Below, one piece after another: positions 5,768 to 61,771 of a stretch of DNA of 64,000 nucleotides; position 1 is the stretch's first letter; every line of letters starts with the position of its first letter. The translations under genes and the position numbers were made by a program. The stretch lies in assembly GCF_056712565.1 (NCBI RefSeq), contig NZ_CM160072.1; one strand, given 5' to 3'. The notes below the pieces were generated by a model that ran no database searches, had not been told where the DNA came from, and was given only the letters and a program-made list of their open reading frames with translations.

Positions 5768-7123
5768 ATGATGTCTGCACCCAAAATTACATTTATCGGC
5801 GCTGGTTCGACGATTTTCGTTAAAAATATTCTTGGTGATGTGTTCCATCGAGAGGCGCTGAAAACGGCGCATATTGCCCTGATGGATATCGATCCCACCC
5901 GCCTGGAAGAGTCGCACATTGTGGTGCGTAAGCTGATGGATTCAGCAGGGGCCAGCGGCAAAATCACCTGCCACACCCAACAGAAAGAAGCCTTACAGGA
6001 TGCTGATTTTGTGGTGGTGGCATTTCAGATTGGCGGTTATGAACCTTGCACGGTGACTGATTTCGAGGTCTGTAAGCGGCATGGTCTGGAACAAACCATT
6101 GCCGATACGCTGGGGCCGGGCGGCATTATGCGTGCGCTACGTACCATTCCGCACCTGTGGCAGATTTGCGAGGACATGACGGAAGTCTGCCCCGATGCCA
6201 CCATGCTCAACTACGTTAATCCAATGGCGATGAATACCTGGGCGATGTATGCCCGCTATCCGCATATCAAGCAGGTAGGGCTGTGCCATTCGGTGCAGGG
6301 AACGGCGGAAGAGCTGGCGCGTGACCTCAATATCGACCCGGCTACGCTGCGTTACCGTTGCGCAGGTATCAACCATATGGCGTTTTACCTGGAACTGGAG
6401 CGCAAAACCGCCGACGGCAGTTACGTGAATCTCTACCCGGAACTGCTGGCGGCTTATGAAGCAGGGCAGGCACCGAAGCCAAATATTCATGGTAATACTC
6501 GCTGCCAGAATATTGTGCGTTACGAAATGTTCAAAAAGCTGGGCTACTTCGTCACAGAATCGTCAGAACATTTTGCTGAGTACACACCGTGGTTTATTAA
6601 GCCAGGTCGTGAGGATTTGATTGAGCGTTATAAAGTACCGCTGGATGAGTACCCGAAACGCTGCGTCGAGCAGCTGGCGAACTGGCATAAAGAGCTGGAG
6701 GAGTATAAAAACGCCTCCCGGATTGATATTAAACCGTCACGGGAATATGCCAGCACAATCATGAACGCTATCTGGACTGGCGAGCCGAGTGTGATTTATG
6801 GCAATGTCCGTAACGATGGCTTGATTGATAACCTGCCACAAGGATGTTGCGTGGAAGTGGCCTGTCTGGTTGATGCTAATGGCATTCAGCCGACCAAAGC
6901 CGGTACGCTACCTTCGCATCTGGCCGCCCTGATGCAAACCAACATCAACGTACAGACGCTGCTGACAGAAGCTATTCTTACGGAAAATCGCGACCGTGTT
7001 TACCACGCCGCGATGATGGACCCGCATACTGCCGCCGTGCTGGGCATTGACGAAATATATGCTCTTGTTGACGACCTGATTGCCGCCCACGGCGACTGGC
7101 TGCCAGGCTGGTTGCACCGTTAA
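5768..7123 (+). CDS. melA: Alpha-galactosidase (NAD/Mn-dependent, GH4)
   Basis: 451-aa ORF MMSAPKITFIGAGSTIF..., Rossmann N-terminus typical of GH4; stop TAA at 7121-7123. Confidence 0.95.
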   Translation: MMSAPKITFIGAGSTIFVKNILGDVFHREALKTAHIALMDIDPTRLEESHIVVRKLMDSAGASGKITCHTQQKEALQDADFVVVAFQIGGYEPCTVTDFEVCKRHGLEQTIADTLGPGGIMRALRTIPHLWQICEDMTEVCPDATMLNYVNPMAMNTWAMYARYPHIKQVGLCHSVQGTAEELARDLNIDPATLRYRCAGINHMAFYLELERKTADGSYVNLYPELLAAYEAGQAPKPNIHGNTRCQNIVRYEMFKKLGYFVTESSEHFAEYTPWFIKPGREDLIERYKVPLDEYPKRCVEQLANWHKELEEYKNASRIDIKPSREYASTIMNAIWTGEPSVIYGNVRNDGLIDNLPQGCCVEVACLVDANGIQPTKAGTLPSHLAALMQTNINVQTLLTEAILTENRDRVYHAAMMDPHTAAVLGIDEIYALVDDLIAAHGDWLPGWLHR

Positions 7124-14055: not shown

Positions 14056-14286
14056 ATGGATCGGGCGCTACTGGACGGGGGTTATCGCTGTTATACCGGC
14101 GAAAATATCGATGTCTATTTTAACACTGCGATATGTCAGCATTCTGGCAATTGCGTACGTGGCAACGGCAAGTTATTTAATCTCAAACGAAAGCCGTGGA
14201 TCATGCCGGATGAAGTCGACGTTGCCACTGTGGTTAAAGTGATTGATACGTGCCCGAGTGGCGCGCTGAAATACCGTCATAAATAA
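14056..14286 (+). CDS. yjdI: Small Cys-containing protein YjdI
   Basis: 76-aa [36 protein letters not shown]... Confidence 0.85.
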
Positions 14287-14297
14287 GCGAGGGTAAA

Positions 14298-14570
14298 ATG
14301 GAAATACGCGAAGGCCACAATAAATTTTACATTAATGACGAACAAGGCAAGCAAATCGCTGAAATTGTCTTTGTGCCGACCGGAGAGAATTTAGCGATTA
14401 TCGAACATACCGATGTCGATGAAAGCCTGAAAGGGCAAGGGATTGGTAAACAGCTGGTTGCGAAAGTCGTGGAAAAAATGCGTCGGGAAAAACGAAAAAT
14501 TATCCCACTATGCCCATTTGCGAAACACGAATTTGATAAAACACGGGAGTATGATGATATTCGCAGTTGA
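14298..14570 (+). CDS. yjdJ: Small GNAT-like protein YjdJ
   Basis: 90-aa ORF 11 nt downstream of yjdI. Confidence 0.85.
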
Positions 14571-14797
14571 TGGGAGAGTACAGAGTCACGATATTTTTCA
14601 TGCTCTCCGCGGTGTGATGCAGGAGAGCATCTGAAGGGTAGGGGGATGCACAAAGAATGGTCAGAGAGAGCGTTTTTTTGTCCCAAGTCATCCCCTTTAC
14701 TGAGCAAAAAAAAAGAATATCTCCTATATGAGAATCATCATTCGGGGTTAATAAGTTTTGCGTCCCCAGAGCGTTCAATATTGATAGGAGTCATATT

Positions 14798-15094
14798 ATG
14801 GAAGGTAAAAACAAGTTCAATACTTATGTTGTTTCTTTTGATTATCCATCATCTTATTCCTCAGTGTTCTTAAGGTTAAGATCATTGATGTATGATATGA
14901 ATTTCTCCTCTATCGTGGCTGATGAATATGGGATACCACGACAATTGAATGAAAACTCCTTCGCAATAACGACATCGTTAGCCGCAAGTGAAATCGAAGA
15001 TTTAATCAGGCTCAAATGCTTAGACTTACCGGATATTGATTTTGACCTCAGCATTATGACAGTTGATGACTATTTCCGTCAGTTTTACAAGTAG
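14798..15094 (+). CDS. ghoS: Type V antitoxin GhoS (endoribonuclease cleaving ghoT mRNA)
   Basis: 98-aa ORF MEGKNKFNTYVVSFDYPSSYSSVF...; immediately upstream of ghoT. Confidence 0.85.
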   Translation: MEGKNKFNTYVVSFDYPSSYSSVFLRLRSLMYDMNFSSIVADEYGIPRQLNENSFAITTSLAASEIEDLIRLKCLDLPDIDFDLSIMTVDDYFRQFYK

Positions 15095-20910: not shown

Positions 20911-22245
20911 TTAATGTGCGTTAGACGCTGTGTGGTTATCCATTGAGTGGCTCTGGCGCTCGTGCATTTTGCGAGCGTAGAACATCAGGATAATCAGGCT
21001 GACGATGAAGGTACCTGCCAGCTCGAAGGAGCTTGCGCCCATCAGCGCGATGAAGCAGAACACGCAACCCAGTACAGAGCAGATCAGGCTGACAAAGTTG
21101 CGGATGTTAACGCCTTCAAAACGAATCAGGTCAACGCAAGAGTAGAAGTACGGCAGCATAGTCAGCAGTACTGCGATACCGGTCAGTTCACCGAACAGGT
21201 CAGAGGCTTTACCACCGGCAGAGTTCATCAGAGTGATGAGGATCATCAGGGCAGTCATTTTCACTGCAGCCAGCAGCAGACCTTTTTTCGGAATACCGTT
21301 GCTGTCGACTTCACCATAAACTTTCGGGAAGTTACCGTCGTTAGCGGCACGTACACCTGCCTGGCCTACCAACATCATCCAGGAGCCCAGAGAAGTCAGG
21401 CACGCAAAGGCGGTGAATGCAGAAACCAGTGGCGCAGCCCAGTTACCGAGGATAGTTGAAGCACTGATTGCAAACGGAGCACCGGAAGCCGCCATTACAG
21501 AAGACGGATACATACCGGAAAGCACCTGAGTCGCAGCGATGTAAACAATACCTGCTAAACCAGTACCCAGCATGGTTGCCAGCGGAACGGTACGTTTCGG
21601 GTTTTTAACCATACCAGTACTTACTGCTGCGGATTCAACACCCACGAAGGCCCACAGGCAGAGCAGAATACTTTTAATGATCGCATGACCATCAGTGGTA
21701 TCCGCAGTATTCCAGTTAGCTGCATAAGTTGCTGCATCAAACCAATGCCAGCCAACAATAGCAGTCATCACCACAGGAATAAGAACCAGCACCAGACCAA
21801 TCGTGGTTAAACGGCTTACCCAGGTACCGCCGAGCATATTCACAAAGGTAAATACCCAGACGATAGCAATACAGGCGATACCCGCCGGAACAGGATCATT
21901 TAATACTGGGAAGAAGGTGGAAAGATAAGATACAGCGGTAATACCAATTGCCAGGTTACCAATCCAGTTAGCATGGTAATAAAGAACACCTGTCTGAAAA
22001 CCAAATGCAGGGGAAATTTCTCCGGCATACGCAATTGGGCCACCTTGTTGCGGGTTTTTTGTTGCCAGTCGGGCATATACATATGCCAGCGACATTGCAC
22101 CAATAATAGAGATAATCCAACCCCAGATAGCAATACCACCGATACTTGCTAGGTTCGCAGGTAATAATGCAATACCGCTCCCCATCATATTACCGGCAAC
22201 AACACCGGTACAGGCAAATAGCCCGATCTTCTTGGCAGAACTCAT
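20911..22245 (-). CDS. cadB: Lysine:cadaverine antiporter
   Basis: 444-aa APC-family ORF MSSAKKIGLFACTGVVAGNMMGSG... Confidence 0.95.
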   Translation of the reverse strand: MSSAKKIGLFACTGVVAGNMMGSGIALLPANLASIGGIAIWGWIISIIGAMSLAYVYARLATKNPQQGGPIAYAGEISPAFGFQTGVLYYHANWIGNLAIGITAVSYLSTFFPVLNDPVPAGIACIAIVWVFTFVNMLGGTWVSRLTTIGLVLVLIPVVMTAIVGWHWFDAATYAANWNTADTTDGHAIIKSILLCLWAFVGVESAAVSTGMVKNPKRTVPLATMLGTGLAGIVYIAATQVLSGMYPSSVMAASGAPFAISASTILGNWAAPLVSAFTAFACLTSLGSWMMLVGQAGVRAANDGNFPKVYGEVDSNGIPKKGLLLAAVKMTALMILITLMNSAGGKASDLFGELTGIAVLLTMLPYFYSCVDLIRFEGVNIRNFVSLICSVLGCVFCFIALMGASSFELAGTFIVSLIILMFYARKMHERQSHSMDNHTASNAH

Positions 22246-37098: not shown

Positions 37099-37266
37099 CT
37101 GACTGATTCGTCATTCCCTTCGTCCCGCCAGTCACTGGTGTTTGTATCGTACCGTCCGGTGTTGATGTGCGTTTTCCGTGTGTCTGCACCGGCTTAACAA
37201 AATTCAACAGGGTTTGAAAAGGAACATTTCGTGCAAATAACCGAAGCCTTAATTTCAGAGCCGGGA
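37099..37266. repeat. Copy 1 of a ~150-170 bp repeat (inverted relative to copy 2 at 44502-44651) with a conserved 7-1-7 palindrome
   Basis: Manual alignment to the reverse complement of 44502-44651: blocks ccggctctgaaa, gcttcggttatttgca, tccttttcaaacc, cgccagtNactggcg, gaatgacga shared; roughly 75 percent identity. Confidence 0.6.
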
Positions 37267-37279
37267 GACATCCGGCGTT

Positions 37280-37636
37280 TTGTTCAGCAGGCGCTGGAGT
37301 TCTTTAATCTGCTTCATGGCAGCAGCAAGTTCAGAGGCAGGAACGACCTGTTCTCCTGCGGCCACAGCAGTAAGACTTCCCTCCTGGTATTGCTTGCGCC
37401 AGAGAAATAACTGGCTGGCTGCCACACCGTGTTGCCGGGCAACAAGGGAGACCGTCATTCCCGGTTCAAAGCTCTGCTGAACAATAGCGATCTTTTCCTG
37501 TGTAGTACGCCGTCTGCGTTTCTCCGGTCCTAAGACATCAATCATCTGTTCTCCAATGACTGGTCTAAAAACTAGTATTAAGACTATCACTTAAATAAGT
37601 GATATTGGTTGTCTGGAGATTCTGGGGGCTAGTCTA
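37280..37636 (-). mobile_element. insC: IS2 remnant (left inverted repeat plus 5' part of insC); rest of the element missing
   Basis: Terminal ggttgtctggagattctgggggctagtcta matches the IS2 IRL; minus-strand [56 protein letters not shown]... equals IS2 InsC until homology ends near 37280. Confidence 0.75.
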
Positions 37637-38793
37637 GTTTTAAAGCGCCCCCTGCCGTATCAGAACTGGGGAATGCTACAGGGTTTGACCTGTTCCTCGA
37701 GGATCGTAGCGGAGCTAGCCATGAAAAAATGATCCAGGCCCGAAATCAGCTTCTTGCTGAAGCGGCGAAAAGTCCAGCGTTAAACATGGTTCGTCCTAAC
37801 GGCATGAACGATGAGCCTCAGTTCCAGATTCTGATTGATGACGAGAAAGTTCAGGCGTTTAAACTGAGCATGAGCGACGTCGACAACATAATGTCAGCAG
37901 CCTGGGGTTCGATGTATGTAAATGATTTTAACGATCGTGGACGGGTGAAAAAAGTCTATATTCAGGGCGAACCCGGCTCACGTATATCACCGCAGGATTT
38001 TGATAAATGGTATGTCCGTAACAGTGATGGCGACATGGTTTCCTTTGCCTCTTTTGCAACAGGCAAATGGATTTATGGCTCACCAAAACTGGAGCAATAT
38101 AATGGTATCTCTGCTGTCGAAATCCTGGGGGAACCGGCACCAGGATACAGTTCCGGGGATGCAATGAAAGCAATTGAGGATATTGCGGCAAGACTTCCCG
38201 AAGGTTTCCATATTTCCTGGACAGGTTTGTCTTTTGAGGAACGACTTTCAGGTTCTCAGGCTCCTGCACTATATGCACTTTCACTGTTGATCGTCTTTCT
38301 GTGTCTGGCTGCACTGTATGAAAGCTGGAGCATTCCTTTCTCGGTCATGCTGGTTGTTCCGCTTGGTGTCCTGGGGGCTGTCTGTGCTACTTTGTTGCGC
38401 GGCCTTGGTAACGATGTCTTTTTCCAGGTCGGTTTATTAACAACAATAGGGCTGTCTGCGAAAAATGCCATACTTATCGTGGAGTTTGCTCGTGAATTGC
38501 ATGAGAAAGAAGGACTAAGCATTAAAGAGGCTGCTGTTGAAGCGGCGAGAGTGAGGTTAAGACCGATAATTATGACTTCGCTGGCATTTGTAATGGGGGT
38601 TATCCCACTGGCTGTCTCGACTGGAGCAAGTTCCGGAAGTAAACATGCCATCGGTACTGGTGTGGTTGGAGGGATGATCACTGCTACGATACTGGCAATC
38701 TTTTATATTCCTCTCTTCTATATGTTAATTGCCGGGTTCTTCAGCCGCAGAAATAAGAAATCATCGGATAAGACTGAAGCTGAGCAATCATAA
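37637..38793 (+). pseudogene. RND multidrug efflux pump (AcrB/AcrF-like), C-terminal ~350 residues only; 5' part removed at the IS2 junction
   Basis: [28 protein letters not shown]...[25 protein letters not shown]... aligns with AcrB residues ~690-1049; no N-terminal two thirds. Confidence 0.8.
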
Positions 38794-38892
38794 GCATGAG
38801 TAAATATTCAGGTGCAGTAAACAACATACTGCGCCTGAGTAAATGGCTGTTGGGTTGGTACTAAATGCCCCAGAGATATTTCCTGAAATAAG

Positions 38893-39493
38893 ATGTCAAT
38901 GGAGATTTCAACAGTGGTGCGGCACACAAAATTTGCAGCGGAAGAAACCCGCAAACAAATCCTGGATGTGGCAGAGTTCTGCTTTTGTGAGACGGGCTTT
39001 TCGAAGACGACACTGGAGATGATTGCGGCGCGCGCAGGTTGTACTCGGGGGGCCATATACTGGTATTTCAACGAAAAAAAAGATCTTCTGCGACAAGTCA
39101 TCGAGCGGGTACCACTATCATTATTTGATGAGCTTACAGCCATCAAAAATGGGAGAGTTTTTGAACCGGTTAAAGCGATGTATCGTTGCTTATCACGTAG
39201 CCTGATTAAATTACAATATAATGTACACTTACGGAATGTAATTTATATTGTGTTTTTTTTGTGAAGAATGTCCGGATGATATAAGAATAAATTTCTTACA
39301 AAAAATGGTGGATGTCAATAATTTTGTGAAATTACTATGTTATATTTTCGAAAAAGGTAAGTTATATAGAGAAATATGTTTGGAAATTCGTAGTGAGACT
39401 CTGGCGTTCCTGCTTTTTTCTTTGTTTACGGGGGGGGGCGAAGTTGCATTCTGCAACCTGATAATAAATCCCTTTTCAGAGAGGGTTGCATAG
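38893..39493 (+). pseudogene. TetR-family regulator (AcrR/EnvR-like), apparently frameshifted
   Basis: N-terminal TetR HTH (TTLEMIAARAGCTRGAIYWYFNEKKDLL) in the 38893-39264 ORF; remainder continues in another frame (39248-39493); T8 run at 39253-39260. Confidence 0.55.
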
Positions 39494-39535
39494 TACTGGA
39501 GTTGACCCAATCAACCTTCACAGGCATCGATAAAA

Positions 39536-39881
39536 ATGAACGCTACTATAAAAAACAGCTCTGATATCAATGAGTTTGCTAAATGGATTGATGAAAATCT
39601 TGAGGTAGAACTCTCAATAAATATTGAGGCAAAAAAAGCTGGATATTCAAAATGGTATTTACAGAGATTGTTTAAACATATCATTGGTATTTCTATTGGT
39701 AGGTATATTAATAAATGCAGCAGAAGAACTACGTTCTACTACTGAATCGGTCACGACTATCACTTTTAAATATCAGTTTGATTTTCAGCAGACATTTACA
39801 AGGGCATTTACTCGCCGCTTTGGTATAGCTCCTATTGCATACCGAAAACTCGCTAAGGAAGAAGTGAGATGGAATAGTTAG
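39536..39881 (+). pseudogene. MarA/SoxS-like small AraC-family regulator, split across two frames
   Basis: INEFAKWIDENLEVELSINIEAKKAGYSKWYLQRLFKHIIG in one frame, FDFQQTFTRAFTRRFGIAPIAYRK in the next; together they resemble MarA. Confidence 0.5.
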
Positions 39882-41979: not shown

Positions 41980-42107
41980 AGCGAGCCCACTTGTTTGGGA
42001 AGTTTATTCCTATCTTAGGATAGGAACCTGACAAGTGGGCGTAAACTATCTTGCGGGCGTGTTGGACTATTTTGCTTTCATTATCGGGCCAATGCAAAAT
42101 CACGCCA

Positions 42108-43163
42108 TCACCGTGTAATTCCCGGGGACACGACTTTTCGATAATCAGAGGGGGTCATGCCAGTATCTTTTTTGAAGATGCGGCAAAAATAGTTTGAATC
42201 CTGGTATGCCAGTTCCAGCGCAATGGTATTTACTTGTAAGTCACTGAACCGCAATAACGATTTGGCGATAGTAATTTTACGCGTGGCAATATAGTTCGAA
42301 AACCCGAACCCGGTAATTTTCTTAAAGGTACGGCTCAAATAGCAGGCACTGACAAACGATTTTGCTGCCACGTCATCGAGCGTCAAGTTTCTGAGAATAT
42401 TTTTCTCAATATGGAATTTCGCTCGTTCGATAAAATCGATATTGCCTGTATAGCCTTTTAATGCGTAATCAAACAGCTCTTCGCTAATGGTCAGCAGGCT
42501 GATCATGATGCGGAAATAGCGGCTTTCCATCATGCCATACTGGTTGATGTCTTTGATCAGCGCGGCGACTTTACGGTTAGTCGGCATTAACTTTTCCCCT
42601 TTGGCGGTCATATACTGGCTAACTATTTCCAGAAAATCGATCACGTCTTTGCGCTTATCCTCTTCTATCATATCCACCGGACAGGCACCGTTGAGCGTGT
42701 CAAAAATAAAGTTGTGCCACTGGGTGTAATCGCAATCGTCTATCATGGCGAACACTTTCTGTTTTAGGGCGCGGGATTTTTCATTTTCTCCTTCGTCGAA
42801 TGCTAGGGTTTTTTTGATGGTGTCGGTCAAGATACATTTTTTCACTGGTTTGAGCAGATAATCATCCACTTTAAGGTTGTACATGCTGCGTACTATATCA
42901 AAGTCATCATTGGCCGTGATTACGATGATTTTAGTATCGCTGTTTTTTTTCTTCAGATATTCAATCACCTGTTTACCGTTCGGCAACGGAATATTAATGT
43001 CCACTAAGATCATATCGATTTGACTCAGTTGGTCAATTAAGTGAATCGCTTTTTTACCGGTTGAGGCTTCATGGATCGCAGCGTTTTCCACACACTGGGA
43101 GATAATCTGCCGCAGGGATTCTAATTCGATGGGCTCATCTTCAACGATAACAATGGTAAACAT
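42108..43163 (-). CDS. Response regulator with CheY-like receiver and C-terminal AraC-type HTH (YesN-like)
   Basis: 351-aa ORF MFTIVIVEDEPIELESL...DMILVDINIPLPNGKQV... and C-terminal AraC HTH. Confidence 0.85.
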   Translation of the reverse strand: MFTIVIVEDEPIELESLRQIISQCVENAAIHEASTGKKAIHLIDQLSQIDMILVDINIPLPNGKQVIEYLKKKNSDTKIIVITANDDFDIVRSMYNLKVDDYLLKPVKKCILTDTIKKTLAFDEGENEKSRALKQKVFAMIDDCDYTQWHNFIFDTLNGACPVDMIEEDKRKDVIDFLEIVSQYMTAKGEKLMPTNRKVAALIKDINQYGMMESRYFRIMISLLTISEELFDYALKGYTGNIDFIERAKFHIEKNILRNLTLDDVAAKSFVSACYLSRTFKKITGFGFSNYIATRKITIAKSLLRFSDLQVNTIALELAYQDSNYFCRIFKKDTGMTPSDYRKVVSPGITR

Positions 43164-43179
43164 ATGTCCTTTTCCTGTA

Positions 43180-44442
43180 TCAGGCTTCCTGCATTGGGAA
43201 CCGAAGTTTAATGGTTGTACCCATCCTGGGTTTGTTAGGGCTCATTATTTCCAAGCCATAGCTCTCGCCAAATAACAACTTCAATCTATTTTTTATGTTG
43301 TTAATGCCAATACTGCCTTTTTGCAATTTTTGGTCGCCTGATAAAATGCGATTAATGGTATCTGGTGCGATGCCGTCGCCATTGTCAGTGACTTCAATAA
43401 TCACGTTCAGGCCATCGTCCGTGGCACGGATCAGCAGATGACTATTGCTATCCCTTGGCTCCACTACGTAGTTAAAGAAGTTTTCCACCAGCGGTTGCAG
43501 GATCAAAAACGGGCAGACTACATCCAGATATTTTTCCGGGATATCGCACAGGTAATCGAAACGGTCTCTCATACGCACTTTTTGGATCGACATATAGTTG
43601 TTGACGTAATTTATTTCATTACGCAGAGTAATCAGGCCGTGACTATTTTTACGTAACAAATAGCGCATCATGTCAGAGAAATCGTGCACCATTGTTTCGG
43701 TACGCTGCGCATCTTCAAGAAAAGCTAACCGGCCAATGGTATTTAATACGTTAAATAAAAAGTGTGGATTTATCTGATAAGAGAGCGCTTTAAATTCAGC
43801 TTCATGTAGTGAGCGTTCTATCTCTACACGTTTTCTTAACTCATTAGCCAGTGCAAGATCCTTTTTACGAAGTTCGCGTTGGATATTATTGGTGTGCGCT
43901 TGTTCGACCAGATAAGACGATACGTGTAGTAACGTCGAGGCAGTAGACTCAAAACGCTCATACGGCATGCGACGTGTATTCTGGTGCAAATTAATTAACC
44001 AAGGATTATCTTTCCAGACGTCATTATTATTCAGAATATAGGAAATGCTCTGTTCTTTCTCTTCTTCGACTTTTACCTGACCGGAAATAAAAGCACCGAG
44101 ATAATGATCGTTAATCATGATTGGGACAGCGAATTCGACAAAACCGCAGTGGCAGCGATAAACCACCGGTTTGCGAGCGTGCATCGCGGCACGGCCACCA
44201 GCGTTGTCGCTTTCATAACAGTGGTGCGCCAGTGTCGGGTTGAGACGCGAACGCATGCAGAAGTCTGAAAAACCGCTGGGCTTAGTGACCGGGATACCAT
44301 TCTCATCCACAACCACGAGCGCGATCATCATTGATTTTGAAAAGTTGTCCTGCAGGGTCTGAAGGCGTTTTACATCCAAAAACTCATTTAATTTGTATTT
44401 ATTCTTCATACTTTCAGCCTGCATTTTTAAAAACATAATCAT
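43180..44442 (-). CDS. Sensor histidine kinase with N-terminal PocR-like small-molecule-binding domain (cytoplasmic, YesM/LytS-type core)
   Basis: 420-aa ORF; Cys/His-rich N-terminal domain ([22 protein letters not shown]...[14 protein letters not shown]), H-box [18 protein letters not shown]-terminal ATPase; no TM segments noted. Confidence 0.8.
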
Positions 44443-44501
44443 ATATTTATAAATAATTTGTCGCGAAAAAATTGAAATGGATCACAGCAACAAAAACAGC
44501 T

Positions 44502-44651
44502 CCGGCTCTGAAAGTAATGCTTCGGTTATTTGCAAGGGATACTCCTTTTCAAACCTTGCTGAACCAGTGCAGATACACAGGGAAACGTATACCAGAACTG
44601 CCACAATACAAACGCCAGTTACTGGCGATACGAATGGAATGACGAGGCAGT
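44502..44651. repeat. Copy 2 of the inverted repeat (see 37099-37266); lies in the upstream region of the PocR kinase operon and abuts the group II intron 3' end
   Basis: Same alignment as copy 1; contains the perfect palindrome cgccagt-t-actggcg. Confidence 0.6.
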
Positions 44652-44713
44652 CTGTCAGAAAGCCCCACATGAACGATCACCACCTACATAGGAGGTGTTT
44701 TAAAATTGATCGA

Positions 44714-46515
44714 GTAGGAGGCGGGATCACTCCCGCCGTCCTCTCACACCACCGTACATGCGGCTCCGCATACGGCGGTTCATGTTAACACTGGAACTGC
44801 CTCTGCTGTTCCAGCAGTGATATCAGACCCTGCCTGCTGAACCACGCATTCTTTATCGCCTGATTCATATGGCTTGACTCTGAGTTCCACCATGGCCCGT
44901 GGTTGTTGTACGCTGAGATCATCGCCCTGTCCTTACTCAGTCCTGCTCTTTGCAGGTTCTTTGCCCGGGTTAGCGGTCTCTTCCACTGCCGCTACAACAA
45001 GCAACGCAGTTTCCGTTTGATCCAGCCATCCAGCTCCTCCAGCACTCCTCTGACCTCCGTCAGCCTGAAGTAGCTTATCCATCCACACAGCACTGGTGTC
45101 AGAGCATTGATTGTCGCTTTCACTGATTTGCTCCGGTTTCCCGTCGTCAGACTGTGGACTTTCTCCTTCAGCCTGTTCACGCTCGTCAGGGCTATCTTCA
45201 GCTTCGCCTGTTTGTGCCATGTCACACTGTACCCGAGGAACTTCCGATCCCACGGGCGCGCCACCGCGCTCTTCTTCTCATTCACCTTCAGTTTGTTCTC
45301 CACGAACGCCCTGATGTTCTTCAGCAGATGGTCGCCCGCTTTCCGGCTGCTTACGTAGATGTTGCAGTCGTCTGCGTAGCGGCAGAAGCTGTGTCCACGA
45401 CGCTCCAGTTCTTTATCCAGTTCATCCAGCAGGATGTTCGACAGTAACGGCGACAGTGGGCCGCCCTGCAGCATGCCCGCCTGCCGTTTCTCCCTTTGCC
45501 CGTCTTTAACCATTTCCGCTTTCAGGTAGCGGCGTATCAGTCACAGCACCCGCCTGTCCTTTATCGTTCTGGCCAGACGCGTCATCAGGAGTCTGTGATC
45601 CACCCGGTCGAAGAACTTCTCCAGATCCATATCCACCACCCACCGTTTGCCACCCCGTATGTAACGCTGTGCCTGTTGCACCGCCTGCTGGATAAGCCTG
45701 TCCACCACCGTCGGGATGCCTGAGGTTCTCACGCCGCCATCCGGCTTCGGGATATCCATCCGGCGTATTGTCCGCGGCTGGTAGTTTCCGTCAATCAATG
45801 CCTGCCTGACGCTGCGCCAGTTCTTCTTCAGCCACGGTTTCAACTCCGCCACGCTGAGGTTATCCACCCCCGCCGTGCCTTTGTTTTCCACCACGCGCTG
45901 ATAAGCCAGCATCAGGTTTTCTCTCGTTATCACCGCTTCCATCGTCAGCGGCACTTCCGCTTTCGTTTGCCCACCCGCCGCCGTGCTGATTTCAGCGCCA
46001 TCATGCAGCCCTGACGGATACTGTCCGTCTCCTCTGCCGCTGGTCGCAGTGGCCTGCGCTTGTGCTTCATTAATCATCATCGGGTTCGGATGTCCTAATC
46101 ACAGTTAATCATGTTCGGCCCTTCATGCTGCCGGTTTTGCAGCACTACTACGGCGTCGGCTGACTTCTGCCGCCCCATCCCGGCGCCTCACGGCGCCGGT
46201 AGCACACTGGCAGGGCGACAGATCTCCCGGGGTAATTCACGCGACTTTCCTGCTTATGCCTGTCGGCTTTACGTCACAGCGTTCCGTGTGAGTATCGGGC
46301 TTTGGTGATTAGTGCCACCTTACCCTGCTGCGCCGCCTTAACCGCTTCCTGTTCGTCAGGCCAGCATTTTGCATCCAGCTTCCTTCAGATTTCACCTCGC
46401 GATGAACACCCTTGCCTTCCGCTAACACTTCCCCTCACCGGGTGTGTGGAGGACTTTCACCTCTTAGTCGTTCTTCTGCCACCACAGTTGAAGAACAGCG
46501 CCAGTCACGGCGCAC
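44714..46515 (-). mobile_element. Group II intron (bacterial class C-like: inserted just downstream of an intrinsic terminator)
   Basis: Minus-strand 5' end GTGCG at 46511-46515, six nt after the terminator U-tract; domain V-like hairpin (GAACCGCCGTATGCGGAGCCGCATGTACGG) and domain VI-like hairpin near 44715-44780; RT ORF inside; 3' boundary approximate. Confidence 0.7.
44992..45942 (-). pseudogene. Intron-encoded reverse transcriptase/maturase interrupted by in-frame stop codons
   Basis: RT motifs (GVDNLSV, QGGPLSPLLSNILLDELD, FCRYADDCNIYV) and X-domain (CGWISYFRL); in-frame TGA at 45541-45543 and TAG at 44992-44994 after which the frame still reads RQWKRPLTRAKNLQ. Confidence 0.7.
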
Positions 46516-46525
46516 ATAACAAAAA

Positions 46526-46548
46526 GCCAGCAGGCAGACACTGCTGGC
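46526..46548 (-). terminator. Rho-independent terminator of the upstream membrane-protein gene; insertion target of the intron
   Basis: gccagcag-gcagaca-ctgctggc hairpin flanked by A5 and T5. Confidence 0.55.
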
Positions 46549-46565
46549 TTTTTGTTATGGCGGGA

Positions 46566-47471
46566 TTAAAACAGGGGAACCAAGGTAAATAATCCAATGG
46601 TCGCCAACAGATTAATCATCGTGGTCATAATGGTGATGACCATCGCCGGCGGGTCAATATGTGTATCGCCGTGGATCAGGAAGATACGCGACATCAGTTC
46701 ACCCAATATCGCGCAAATTATGCCAACGATAGCAGCCCAAATCAGGCTACCTGATGGCACCGCTACCAACGCGGCAGGCAGCGAAATATGATGTGACACC
46801 GGTACCTGAGTATTGAAATGCAGGAAAATCAGTGAGAACGCGGAAATACCAAACGCCAGCAGCGCGCCGTTGCCGCCAAACTTCAGGCCTAAAAAGCCTG
46901 CCATCAAGCCAATACCCAAGCCCAGCACGGAAAGCTGCGGAATGCGGCTATGGTAAGGTATCCAGCACTTATCCTGCGGCGGATAGCAGTGACGAATTCC
47001 CTGCTCCGGTTTTCCAAACAGGCCAGTTTTACCGAAAACCAGACGCGAGACCACGCCAGAAATCACCACGGTTAGTGCCACGGTATCGGTCCAAGCATTG
47101 CCGGACGGGAAGGCCGGAATCTGGTTCAACCCCCAGGCGATGATGTAACCAACCGCCCCAAAAACCCCGCCTACCAGCAGCACATCGTAAGCCGCCAGAC
47201 CGCTCAACCCGGCAGTGATATCACGCCCGGAACCCAGCTTGCCTTTCTTCGCTGCATACGCCGTCGCCGCAACCCCAGCGGCAAAGCCGCCGGTGTGCGG
47301 GCCAAACAGTCCAAACGGAAAAGTAATAAAGTCCGATGATGCTCCGGTAATAATTTGCACTACCGTCATGGCGATAACCAGAAGCCCAACGAATTCAAAC
47401 GCCGCCAGCGCGCCAACAGCCGCACCAAATATGCCGCCGCCGAAGGCAACTACAATATCTAAGCTATTCAT
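46566..47471 (-). CDS. Polytopic membrane protein, probable transporter (family not recognised; no NPA motifs, so not a GlpF/PduF-type channel)
   Basis: 301-aa Gly/Ala-rich hydrophobic ORF directly downstream of the activase gene. Confidence 0.55.
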   Translation of the reverse strand: MNSLDIVVAFGGGIFGAAVGALAAFEFVGLLVIAMTVVQIITGASSDFITFPFGLFGPHTGGFAAGVAATAYAAKKGKLGSGRDITAGLSGLAAYDVLLVGGVFGAVGYIIAWGLNQIPAFPSGNAWTDTVALTVVISGVVSRLVFGKTGLFGKPEQGIRHCYPPQDKCWIPYHSRIPQLSVLGLGIGLMAGFLGLKFGGNGALLAFGISAFSLIFLHFNTQVPVSHHISLPAALVAVPSGSLIWAAIVGIICAILGELMSRIFLIHGDTHIDPPAMVITIMTTMINLLATIGLFTLVPLF

Positions 47472-54528: not shown

Positions 54529-54810
54529 TTAACCGATAGCCTTCGGTAGAATTTTTTCCACCTCAATGTGTGGGCGTGGAATAACATGTACGGAGACCAG
54601 TTCTCCCACTTTACTCGCAGCAGCGGAGCCCGCATCTGTCGCGGCTTTCACTGCGCCAACGTCGCCGCGAACCATCACAGTCACCAAGCCGGAGCCGATT
54701 TTTTCATAACCCACTAGGGTCACGTTGGCAGATTTCACCATGGTATCTGCAGCTTCAATTGCAGAAACCAGACCTTTCGTTTCAACCATTCCTAATGCTT
54801 CTTGTTGCAT
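54529..54810 (-). CDS. BMC-H shell protein (PduA/EutM-like)
   Basis: Start at internal [57 protein letters not shown] (93 aa). Confidence 0.85.
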
Positions 54811-55094
54811 AACGACCTCAATATTTCCGATAGAAAGAAAACGTGCACAGAGGAATAGCAATCTACGGATTCACCCATGTGCATTAATTATTTAATTATC
54901 ATAATGCTAAGGTTATTCAGACAAAATGTTTTGCGCGTCAGTGGGACTATCTTGCTTTTGCATTCCCGCAATTGACAATAAAATCCACCCGAGGTTTGTA
55001 ATAAAAGATCTGCGTTTAAATTTCCTTGCAAAATAGCCCCGCTCTGAATAGCAATCATAATTACTGTTAAAACTGTCGTATTTTTGCCAATTAG

Positions 55095-59334: not shown

Positions 59335-59473
59335 AATGGGTACGACCTGATTATTGGGTTATCTTATGGGTAATGGGCGTCTAACGATCAGGATAGGGAG
59401 TAACGACGCCCGGTTTTTGTTTATCAGCAGGACTTTTTTGACTGCTTCACGGAGGCTGAACAAAGTTATCCAG

Positions 59474-60592: not shown

Positions 60593-60810
60593 GTGTAACT
60601 ACCTTAATCATGGTAAACGACCAAATTTGATGTCGTTAACCTAACATGGCGATTTTTTTAATGGACTGAGGATGTTTGTGCAGGTGAAGGATTATTTTGC
60701 GGTATTGTTTTGCCTTGAGCAAAAAAGTCCTTTTCTAGGAAATACCTAAAATCTGATACAGTCAAACTCAATATTTATTGTCAGAGAATGAATAAAAGCG
60801 GGGTGTTTTT

Positions 60811-61442
60811 TTGCCACTGCACTGCTTCAGGAATGTATTCACCCCTCATAAAGGCTTCAATGACTCTCCGCCATGGCAAACATGCCATAGGGGGAGATTT
60901 TCAGATAATGATAATAATGTTCGCCCACATCCGATTGTAAATGGATCAGAAAAATGGCCGCGTATTGCCCTGCTGAATGTGGATTACGTCACCTGTTTTG
61001 AATTGCCTTTCTGCTTACCCGGACACCACAACTGATTGCTGTGCTGCGTGAAGAATGGGACATCAGCCAGAAAAATGTGGTGTTCAACGATAAACGCTTT
61101 GGCTGCGTGTACAGCCTGAAGGCCAGTCTTTCCAGTGTGCCGGATACATACCGGTATCATCTGTCTCACCGTATTCGTCGCGTGGTTGGGAATGAAAACA
61201 CATCATTGCCATATCAGCAGGTTGCCCGGGAAGTGAAAGCGCCCCGTGAACGGCTGAAGTATGCGCTGGAGGCGGGGTTACTGGTGACCGCACTGGACGG
61301 CCTGTTCTGGTCTGGCAGTCAGCGTATTGCGGCTGATGTCCTGAGACTAAGACAGAGCGGAATGCCGGTGGTGACAACGACCGTGGAGGTGCACGATAAC
61401 CTGACGGGAACAACCCGCAAAATACCGGCATACCATCTCTGA
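60811..61442 (+). pseudogene. Gene fragments of unknown function (two adjacent ORFs in different frames, no convincing start)
   Basis: ORFs 60811-61035 and 61041-61442 (GTG-initiated in ORF track) look like pieces of one disrupted gene; family not recognised. Confidence 0.25.
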
Positions 61443-61462
61443 TACAACCATCAGGGGGAATA

Positions 61463-61771
61463 TTGCTCTGGCAGCAGCAGTACGACATTCTTTATACTTT
61501 ATCCCCGTGCCTGAAAACATGTGCTAAGGAAACGGGAATGGCAAGGTCCGATTACGATATTATCAATCTGTCTCTGGAACATGAACTGAATGAGTGGCTG
61601 GCAGAGAGAGGTTATGCCGGACTGGCGTATAACCGGAACCGGGTGGTAGAGGTGGTTACCCGCAAATTGCAGGACAGCTTTTATATCAACGTTTCCTGGG
61701 ATGCGCTGAACACGGCATACAATGAACACCCGGAGTGGTTTTCAGGGTTTGTCTCCGGGGATGAGAATTAA
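61463..61771 (+). CDS. Hypothetical small protein
   Basis: 102-aa ORF, plausible shorter start at MARSDYDIINL; family not recognised. Confidence 0.3.
   Translation: MLWQQQYDILYTLSPCLKTCAKETGMARSDYDIINLSLEHELNEWLAERGYAGLAYNRNRVVEVVTRKLQDSFYINVSWDALNTAYNEHPEWFSGFVSGDEN

Follow-up and report, generated by a model that had tools for sequence, protein, structure and literature searches.

The grp Locus and the grpPQ Gene Pair

Within the 64-kb stretch of Escherichia coli DNA analyzed here (the window), two minus-strand ORFs separated by 16 nt encode a sensor histidine kinase and a response regulator (Table 1), at exactly the coordinates that an earlier note on this sequence had assigned to them. 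Megablast matched both at 100% identity to RefSeq grpP and grpQ in E. coli genomes (match in 538 of 5426 genomes), whose RefSeq names are propanediol utilization sensor histidine kinase and response regulator transcription factor, respectively. Compared with their CFT073 counterparts (c4545/c4546), 419 of 420 GrpP residues and all 351 GrpQ residues are identical, the one substitution being E at GrpP position 162 in this sequence vs. K in CFT073. Judged by this protein identity, the pair is the already characterized GrpP/GrpQ of the E. coli grp locus, and the finding is not new. The RefSeq names, the CFT073 identity and published work (PMC11724981, and Lundin et al., 2020, as cited there) likewise bear out the earlier proposal that the pair regulates the locus.

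In the window ORFs and in the RefSeq maps of ATCC 11775 and CFT073, grpPQ lies between grpO and grpR within the grp cluster; the grpA–grpS map was taken from ATCC 11775, a genome with a 100% grpPQ match. CFT073 shares the order grpA-O, intron remnant, grpPQRS, as well as the same flanking island remnants, whereas the position of the locus differs, near cadC in ATCC 11775 and at 4.31 Mb in CFT073. No tRNA that might serve as an island anchor was found within the window. The grp locus encodes a glycyl-radical-enzyme microcompartment of the GRM3 type, in which 1,2-propanediol is fermented anaerobically. NCBIfam matches and RefSeq names supply the whole GRM3 feature list: glycyl radical enzyme and activase, shell proteins, aldehyde and alcohol dehydrogenases, phosphotransacylase, acetate/propionate kinase, SAM synthetase and the two-component pair, which is an ancillary feature of GRM3 loci (Axen et al., 2014). 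Eight further loci were examined, and in every one the kinase-regulator pair adjoins genes of a glycyl-radical microcompartment (synteny in Buttiauxella, Vibrio, Rhodospirillum, Mixta, Rahnella, Dryocola, and Brenneria); six of these loci carry the complete module of kinase, regulator, SAM synthetase and shell protein.

Table 1. Coordinates of genes, domains, and regulatory features of the grpPQ region and related grp intergenic gaps in the window.
Feature	Coordinates	Strand	Evidence or remarks
grpR promoter, -10-like TAAGAT	42017-42012	(-)	Operator geometry
Candidate GrpQ operator upstream of grpR, GTGATTTTGC-N18-GCAAAATAGTCC-N9-GCAAGATAGTTT	42043..42103	(-)	Conserved in 7 genera including Vibrio; exact box match
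grpQ, response regulator, 351 aa	42108..43163	(-)	ORF and Pfam; receiver and two AraC-type HTH motifs
grpP, soluble sensor histidine kinase, annotated 420 aa	43180..44442	(-)	ORF, Pfam and RefSeq name
GrpP kinase core, PF06580 dimerisation/phosphoacceptor (H227, NPHFLFN) and HATPase_c	43189..43800	(-)	Pfam
GrpP PocR sensory domain, residues 20-182	43897..44385	(-)	Conserved C62/C75/C97/C99
Native grpP promoter segment (inferred), ~60 nt	44443..44501	(-)	Upstream alignment across 7 genera
grpP promoter, -10-like TATAAA	44451-44446	(-)	
CRP/FNR-type site TGTGATCCATTTCAAT	44486-44471	(-)	Site center about -39.5
Dispersed repeat, relic of P4-like genomic-island module	44502..44652	(-)	Second inverted copy and native context
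Decayed group II intron between grpO and grpP	44714..46515	(-)	Rfam RF02001, RF01998, RF00029
Intrinsic terminator hairpin after grpO	46525..46549	(-)	Fold of containing segment
grpH promoter, -10-like TAGCAT	54909-54904	(-)	Operator geometry
Candidate GrpQ operator in grpG-grpH gap, GGATTTTATTGT-N19-GCAAGATAGTCC-N9-GCAAAACATTTT	54923..54986	(-)	Near-invariant block, 12 Enterobacterales loci
Box-like TCAAAAAAGTCC in grpA-grpB gap, possible extra internal site	59430..59441	(-)	One mismatch
Candidate main operon promoter upstream of grpA, GGACTTTTTTGC-N18-GCAAAATAATCC-N7-GCACAAACATCC	60636..60730	(-)	Sole conserved upstream block, 15 orthologous loci
Candidate grpA promoter, extended -10 TGtTAGGTT	60646-60638	(-)	

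Domain Architecture of GrpP and GrpQ

Pfam recovered every domain that the earlier note had anticipated: PocR (PF10114, E 2.2e-44, model positions 1-161/162), His_kinase (PF06580, residues 215-295, E 5.8e-27), and HATPase_c (residues 313-418, E 4e-7) in GrpP, and Response_reg (residues 4-116, E 4e-20) together with HTH_18 and two HTH_AraC matches (residues 252-343) in GrpQ. Among 20 GrpP orthologues with identity down to 44%, the kinase residues H227, N321, D353, G355, G357, and G379 are invariant. PocR domains are expected to bind small hydrocarbon derivatives such as 1,2-propanediol. In the PocR domain of GrpP, C75 and C97 are also invariant, and conservation of C62 and C99 is 90% or more; the same set shows no conservation of any of the seven histidines, so that the description of the domain as Cys/His-rich holds for the cysteines only.

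The Kyte-Doolittle 19-residue scan found no transmembrane segment in GrpP, in keeping with the predicted cytoplasmic kinase; the highest mean, 1.32, falls within the ATPase N-box, compared with a maximum of 2.25 for the adjoining permease GrpO. GrpP shares its LytS/YesM-type PF06580 core, and the pair its receiver-AraC regulator, with GanS of Geobacillus stearothermophilus (together with its presumed partner regulator) and with the YesM/YesN systems. An N-terminal membrane-spanning sensor module is typical of LytS, YehU, and YesM, and kinases of the GanS and YesM types sit in the membrane and sense signals there or outside the cytoplasm. In contrast, GrpP has no membrane segment and a cytoplasmic PocR domain, making it a soluble variant of the class. 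Among solved structures, GrpP comes closest to the GanS kinase domain (6swj/6swk, E 4.9e-27); a sequence search of solved structures matched only the kinase core and returned no PocR-domain structure. In the model, the PocR domain is predicted to have a GAF/IclR-effector-like fold of the small-molecule pocket type, and a long helix connects it to the LytS/YesM-type DHp domain (H227) and on to the ATPase domain. Because most of the full-length orthologues among the matches listed are 409 aa long and begin at the residue aligned with GrpP M12, the true start codon is probably M12 (44409), 11 codons downstream of the annotated start at 44442, which would give a protein of 409 aa.

The GrpQ receiver has the acidic pocket E8/D9, the phosphoacceptor D55, T83, and K105. 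Its solved relatives include the response-regulator entries of the 6sw* (GanS) deposition series, presumably the partner of GanS, and the YesN HTH domain (3lsg, E 2e-9), and the earlier characterization of GrpQ as a YesN-like receiver-AraC protein is a fair one.

Two further systems resemble the pair. Salmonella enterica PocR, which controls the 1,2-propanediol microcompartment operon, shares the PocR sensory domain and the AraC-type HTH output; however, this pdu/cob activator joins sensor and HTH on one polypeptide, whereas GrpP and GrpQ are two proteins linked by His-Asp phosphotransfer. Against the Salmonella PocR equivalog NF047788, GrpP and GrpQ match half each, at 110 and 81 bits vs. a cut-off of 500. 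In Acetobacterium woodii, a PocR-system-like two-component pair (Awo_c25930/25920) lies, like grpPQ, beside a diol microcompartment operon; the regulator binds the upstream regions of pduA and of the kinase gene, and the best inducer is 1,2-propanediol. A PocR-domain kinase has also been noted in PDU1D loci, PDU loci being B12-dependent (Axen et al., 2014).

The Region Upstream of grpP

The only features upstream of grpP that align across seven genera are a TGTGA-N6-TCA motif and a downstream TATAnn-type hexamer, from which we infer a short native promoter segment with a CRP/FNR-type site. As a single-sequence match this site is not above chance in the window, and scanning the window with the FNR and CRP consensus sequences gave matches near chance level, of no value by themselves.

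Beyond this segment lies a repeat that the earlier note had taken for the upstream region of the kinase operon. The repeat itself is real, with an inverted copy at 37101-37264 (74% over 165 nt, E 1e-24), but it appears to be a mobile-element relic and not a native regulatory region, and it is not grp-specific. It comprises the spacer that follows an AlpA-like HTH gene and the first codons of a UCP030791-family gene. A function as a grp regulatory element is rejected, given its occurrence in P4-like island modules, its spread mostly outside grp loci (3491 of 5426 E. coli genomes matched), and its absence upstream of grpP in other genera.

Farther upstream, a decayed group II intron splits grpA-O from grpPQRS directly after the grpO terminator, its 5′ GTGCG beginning 9 nt past the terminator stem. 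The reverse transcriptase/maturase ORF is in two pieces (TIGR04416 positions 2-85 and 168-348 on separate ORFs), and related intact copies of the intron are found on plasmids. The segment containing the terminator hairpin, 46512-46566(-), folds with -32.1 kcal/mol (z -9.2).

Candidate GrpQ Operators in grp Intergenic Gaps

The promoters of grpA, grpH, and grpR share a composite element, GGAYTTTTTTGC-N18/19-GCAARAWARTCC plus a third box-like repeat, that we regard from sequence comparison as a candidate GrpQ operator. Its box footprints are kept across relatives at grpA (15 loci), grpH (12 loci), and grpR (seven genera) while the flanks diverge, and the one block conserved among 15 Enterobacterales loci does lie in the region proposed earlier as the operon promoter (60593-60810). 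Box centers lie near -94, -64, and -44 at grpA and grpR and about one helical turn closer at grpH (a geometry difference of about 11-12 nt), the -10 assignments and the box positions both being estimates. The additional TCAAAAAAGTCC site is kept only in the close E. coli/Atlantibacter/Silvania/Citrobacter clade, in some loci as an exact box. No box was seen upstream of E. coli grpP, in contrast to A. woodii, where the regulator binds the promoter of its own kinase, and the sequences upstream of grpA and of grpP had no significant direct or inverted repeats in common.

A search of Rfam with the grpR leader matched neither a riboswitch nor any other known RNA, even at E 10. A hairpin there is strong in E. 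coli and Vibrio and not in Buttiauxella, the three-sequence consensus fold is weak, and the hairpin may straddle the -10 element instead of sitting in RNA.

The GGAYTTTTTTGC/GCAARAWARTCC boxes might instead be bound by another factor (e.g., a global anaerobic or nucleoid protein) or be elements of promoter architecture, with GrpQ recognizing something else at these promoters. Their A/T-rich composition fits such a reading, as does the lack of resemblance between the predicted operator and the one GrpQ footprint published so far, the 29 bp protected on fimS (Li et al., 2025, PMC11724981). The best matches to that footprint upstream of grpA and grpP (15-16 of 29) are at background, and the fimE-fimA gap contains no grp box at two or fewer mismatches. 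Against another factor, however, exact GCAARAWARTCC occurs four times in the 64 kb vs. 0.15 expected, each time in a grp intergenic gap, an enrichment that is optimistic because the pattern was defined post hoc; an exact copy is absent from the 45-kb fim region. The same three promoters also keep the boxes from Vibrio to E. coli, and 12-mer repeats in tandem and inverted arrangement, spaced 19-21 nt apart, are suited to an AraC-type dimer. We consider this alternative reading of the boxes unlikely.

Published Function and Proposed Signaling Route

Autophosphorylation of GrpP, phosphotransfer to GrpQ and co-transcription of the two genes have been demonstrated (Li et al., 2025, PMC11724981). 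With 1,2-propanediol, expression of grpR, the representative grp gene in that study, was below wild type in a grpP/grpQ mutant under anaerobic but not aerobic conditions, and deleting grpP or grpQ abolishes 1,2-propanediol induction of grp genes according to Lundin et al. (2020), as cited in PMC11724981. D-serine also activates GrpP/GrpQ, independently of oxygen, and activation of type 1 fimbriae on D-serine constitutes a second role of the pair: GrpQ phosphorylation is D-serine-dependent, GrpQ-P binds fimS, and the mutant is attenuated in mice (Li et al., 2025, PMC11724981).

GrpP and GrpQ very probably form the dedicated two-component system of the grp locus, operating by the following route. 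A cytoplasmic ligand, most likely 1,2-propanediol itself, would bind the PocR domain and raise GrpP kinase activity. Phosphorylated GrpQ would bind the conserved composite operator, i.e., the inverted GGAYTTTTTTGC-N18/19-GCAARAWARTCC pair with its third box-like repeat 19-21 nt downstream, and thereby switch on three or more promoters whose -35 elements are weak. The promoter of grpPQ appears to have a CRP/FNR-type class II site in place of such a box, which would put the sensor genes under catabolite and/or anaerobic control.

An alternative, which the earlier note had raised for the aldehyde product, is that GrpP senses propionaldehyde, another downstream metabolite or the general alcohol/aldehyde pool, in which case the diol would induce only where the dehydratase has some basal activity. 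The A. woodii promoter under control of the homologous PocR-kinase system responds to 2,3-butanediol, ethylene glycol, ethanol, and acetaldehyde as well as to 1,2-propanediol, the E. coli response to 1,2-propanediol is confined to anaerobic conditions, which permit activity of the oxygen-sensitive glycyl radical dehydratase, and aldehydes could react with the sensor domain at its four conserved cysteines. Yet 1,2-propanediol is the strongest inducer in A. woodii, the domain is named after Salmonella PocR, a 1,2-propanediol-responsive controller of pdu expression, and D-serine, which is no aldehyde, activates under both oxygen conditions. We consider product sensing unlikely and retain 1,2-propanediol as the most likely ligand.

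A simple one-ligand model does not explain why activation by 1,2-propanediol is anaerobic only whereas that by D-serine is oxygen-independent. One speculative and distinctly improbable addition is that C62/C75/C97/C99 form a metal, redox, or aldehyde-reactive center through which GrpP integrates oxygen or aldehyde status with ligand binding; such a center, if present, could account for both behaviors.

The view of GrpP/GrpQ as a regulator concerned chiefly with virulence in uropathogenic E. coli, responding to urinary D-serine and acting on fimS with grp control secondary or indirect, draws on the D-serine-dependent phosphorylation, fimS footprint and mouse attenuation of Li et al. (2025) but is very unlikely given that the pair, usually with the SAM synthetase and shell genes, lies beside glycyl-radical microcompartments in environmental and plant-associated genera, Vibrio and Rhodospirillum, that a box conserved across genera marks three grp promoters and is missing from the fimS region, and that 1,2-propanediol induction is lost on deletion (Lundin et al., 2020, as cited above). 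From this synteny, the distribution of the boxes and the deletion effect, the fimbrial role looks like a lineage-specific add-on to the dedicated grp regulator.

Implications

Since RefSeq already names this regulator and two papers have studied it, its re-identification adds little alone. In uropathogenic E. coli, GrpP/GrpQ ties phase switching of type 1 fimbriae to the anaerobic fermentation of 1,2-propanediol in a protein organelle. If confirmed, the features proposed here would give the grp regulon an operator and three promoters, the sensor genes a likely CRP/FNR input, and GrpP a corrected start codon. The mismatch between the grp box and the fimS footprint, if it too is confirmed, would bear on the means by which a single AraC-type regulator acts at two unrelated targets.

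The GrpP/GrpQ Pair and Its Published Function

The two open reading frames that the earlier note had proposed as the likely regulator of the locus lie next to each other on the minus strand where it placed them, separated by 16 nt (see table), and constitute the already known GrpP/GrpQ system. RefSeq names grpP a propanediol utilization sensor histidine kinase and grpQ a propanediol utilization response regulator transcription factor, and megablast of the 2335-bp interval against 5426 complete E. coli genomes gave matches in 538, with an identity of 99% or more in 535. GrpQ is identical to the protein of uropathogenic E. coli CFT073 (351/351 residues), and GrpP is one residue apart (E162 here, K162 in CFT073; window 43959 region). 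Glutamate is the commoner residue at this position among orthologues (PYERF).

Published work on the pair, together with the RefSeq identity, supports its role as locus regulator. A GrpP-GST fusion autophosphorylates and then passes the phosphate to GrpQ, the two genes are co-transcribed, D-serine raises both grpP/grpQ mRNA and GrpQ phosphorylation, phosphorylated GrpQ leaves a 29-bp footprint in fimS, and a grpP/grpQ mutant is attenuated (Li et al., 2025, PMC11724981). With 1,2-propanediol, the representative grp gene grpR was expressed at a lower level in the grpP/grpQ mutant than in the wild type anaerobically, but not aerobically (PMC11724981). Deletion of grpP or grpQ is also described there, with reference to Lundin et al. 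(2020), as blocking anaerobic 1,2-propanediol induction of grp genes. The ligand sensed by the pair may be the diol, the aldehyde or D-serine, with oxygen affecting the response to 1,2-propanediol but not that to D-serine. Ancillary genes of GRM3 loci include a two-component pair, and PocR domains, traced to Anantharaman and Aravind (2005), were noted in regulators from several microcompartment locus types (Axen et al., 2014).

Pfam searches recovered the predicted architecture. GrpP carries a full-length PocR domain (residues 20–182, E 2.2e-44), His_kinase PF06580 (215–295, E 5.8e-27) and HATPase_c (313–418), and GrpQ a Response_reg domain (4–116, E 4e-20) and, in its C-terminal part (252–343), HTH_18 and two HTH_AraC matches. 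No membrane-spanning stretch was found in GrpP, in agreement with its proposed cytoplasmic location; its Kyte-Doolittle 19-residue mean peaks at 1.32, vs. 2.25 in the adjoining permease GrpO. Across 20 orthologues, H227 within NPHFLFN is invariant, as are the N and G boxes of the ATPase domain, and the GrpQ receiver residues E8/D9, D55, T83, and K105 are present. The description of the PocR domain as Cys/His-rich holds for its cysteines, with C75 and C97 invariant and C62 and C99 at least 90% kept, but not for its histidines, all of which vary among the same 20 orthologues. The whole-protein AlphaFold model of GrpP (pLDDT 81) comprises a sensor domain of alpha/beta type, a long helix (161–221) and the kinase core, and among solved structures it is matched best by the GanS kinase domain. 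"YesN-like" is a fair term for GrpQ, because its nearest solved relatives are response-regulator entries from the GanS deposition series and a YesN HTH domain.

Features of the grp locus in the window.
Feature	Position	Strand	Remark
grpA to grpS		minus	alcohol dehydrogenase, phosphotransacylase, chaperone, flavoprotein, shell proteins, propionate kinase, aldehyde dehydrogenase
grpM		minus	glycyl radical diol dehydratase
grpN		minus	GrpM activase
grpO, then grpP, grpQ, grpR, grpS		minus	grpO permease, grpR SAM synthetase, grpS shell protein
Candidate operator, grpA	60670-60730	minus	conserved block
Candidate operator, grpH	54923-54986	minus	conserved block
grpO terminator hairpin	46525-46549	minus	very stable
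Decayed group II intron	44714-46515	minus	separates grpA-O from grpPQRS
Dispersed repeat	44502-44652	minus	150-165 nt; just after intron, reading minus strand
Candidate CRP/FNR-type site of grpP	44486-44471	minus	cross-genus alignment
Predicted grpP -10-type hexamer	44451-44446	minus	cross-genus alignment
grpP kinase ORF	43180-44442	minus	420 aa
grpQ regulator ORF	42108-43163	minus	351 aa
Candidate operator, grpR	42043-42103	minus	conserved block

Upstream Region and Predicted Promoter of grpP

Between grpO and grpP, a 55-nt fold containing the grpO terminator (46512–46566; −32.1 kcal/mol, z −9.2) is followed by a group II intron, whose 5′ GTGCG lies 9 nt past the hairpin and whose 3′ end is near 44714. 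Rfam located intron domains at 46406–46118 and 44780–44709; the intron ORF is broken in two (reverse transcriptase/maturase profile positions 2–85 and 168–348), and related intact copies sit on E. coli plasmids. There is a class of bacterial group II intron that inserts right behind terminators, and we infer from the sequence that this intron inserted directly after that of grpO. The arrangement also occurs in CFT073.

The repeat that the earlier note took as the upstream region of the kinase operon is real, but we rejected it as a grp element: it is a mobile-element relic, matched in 3491 of 5426 E. coli genomes, with a second copy inverted at 37101–37264. In one annotated example, from a P4-like island, the repeat is flanked by an AlpA-like HTH gene on one side and on the other by a UCP030791-family gene, whose start it overlaps; another example adjoins zinc-ribbon and inovirus Gp2 family genes. 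The grp cluster and its junk flanks appear embedded in a degenerate P4-like island, with remnants of ECs1377-like and small hypothetical genes beyond grpA (60943–61771). The stretch from the island repeat to grpS (37279–39881) holds transposase remnants, an RND efflux permease in truncated form, and TetR and AraC regulator genes that are split.

Alignment of the 200 nt 5′ of grpP from seven genera left TGTGA-N6-TCA and, further downstream, a TATAnn-type hexamer as the sole conserved features, with 19 nt between the 16-mer site and the hexamer in E. coli. Taking the hexamer as the −10, the site is centered near −39.5, the usual class II position of CRP or FNR; its left half is CRP-like and its right half more like an FNR site. 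Matches of this kind are no more frequent than chance when the window is taken by itself, and the case for a native grpP promoter with a predicted CRP/FNR site comes entirely from conservation. The true grpP start is probably 44409, making the annotated M1 (44442) 11 codons too long, because most listed full-length orthologues (409 aa) begin at the position that corresponds to M12 in the window ORF, and because the predicted −10 element lies just 5′ of the annotated ATG, so that transcription would likely start at or after it.

Candidate GrpQ Operators

The grpQ-grpR gaps of E. coli, Buttiauxella, and Vibrio have in common GCAAAAWAGTCC followed by CAAGATAGTTTA, and the same 12-mer (the box) recurs 5′ of grpA, where a second copy, inverted, lies 18 nt farther upstream. 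In the 64-kb window, GCAARAWARTCC is matched exactly four times, always in a grp intergenic gap, against 0.15 expected; this figure is optimistic, as the pattern was defined with the data already in view. From 33 loci retrieved with a GrpB query, the Enterobacterales ones were aligned. Upstream of grpA, 15 loci have fully diverged except for GGAYTTTTTTGC-N18/19-GCAAAAWARTCC-N5-CTGCACAA and a downstream ATGTTAGGTTAA; this conserved block lies inside the interval 60593–60810 previously proposed as the operon promoter. In the grpG-grpH gap, GGATTTTATTGTC, AACAAGAWAGTCC, and GCAAAACATTTTGTC are nearly unchanged in 12 loci, and the same three elements precede grpR in seven genera. The third, 19–21 nt downstream of the proximal box, resembles a degenerate copy of it in direct orientation. 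If the conserved TAnnAT-type hexamers are the −10 elements, box centers fall near −94, −64, and −44 at grpA and grpR; those at grpH fall near −84, −53, and −32. This predicted layout would suit an AraC-type activator and suggests at least three GrpQ-dependent promoters at the grp locus. A further box-like site, limited to close relatives, occurs in the grpA-grpB gap. For CFT073, RefSeq annotates grpH (record 21812–22095) as a pseudogene with a frameshift; an open reading frame spans it in the window (54529–54810), and it is annotated as intact in E. coli ATCC 11775.

A strong inverted repeat or hairpin between the operator boxes and the grpR start (41986–42039, minus strand; −28.5 kcal/mol, z −5.7) encloses the conserved TAAGAT and may serve as an RNA leader or as a DNA operator covering the −10. 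It had no match in Rfam; a similar palindrome is present in Vibrio and weak in Buttiauxella.

We located the published GrpQ footprint of fimS in the CFT073 fimE-fimA gap, which contains no grp-type box with ≤2 mismatches. Conversely, the footprint gave no more than background-level matches 5′ of grpA and grpP, and it shares no recognizable sequence with the box at the three grp promoters. Either GrpQ binds DNA in two modes, or the assignment of the fimS footprint or that of the grp box is wrong.

Conserved Context of the Pair

In Acetobacterium woodii, the regulator of a two-component pair adjoining pdu binds upstream of pduA and of the kinase gene, and 1,2-propanediol is the best among several inducers. 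GrpO (46566–47471, minus strand; 301 aa) is very hydrophobic and matched no NCBIfam model; a MIP-family channel replaces it at the corresponding place in Buttiauxella (record 14148–14957) and Rahnella (record 6069–6878). Buttiauxella, Vibrio salinus, Mixta, Dryocola, and Brenneria all retain the gene order kinase, regulator, SAM synthetase, shell protein; Rahnella has the module without the SAM synthetase, and in Rhodospirillum rubrum the kinase-regulator pair lies inside the microcompartment operon. The module is convergent with the main operon in Buttiauxella, Vibrio, and Rahnella, and runs in the same direction in E. coli. GrpP/GrpQ therefore travels with glycyl-radical microcompartment genes well beyond uropathogens, which argues that control of the grp locus is the ancestral job of the pair.
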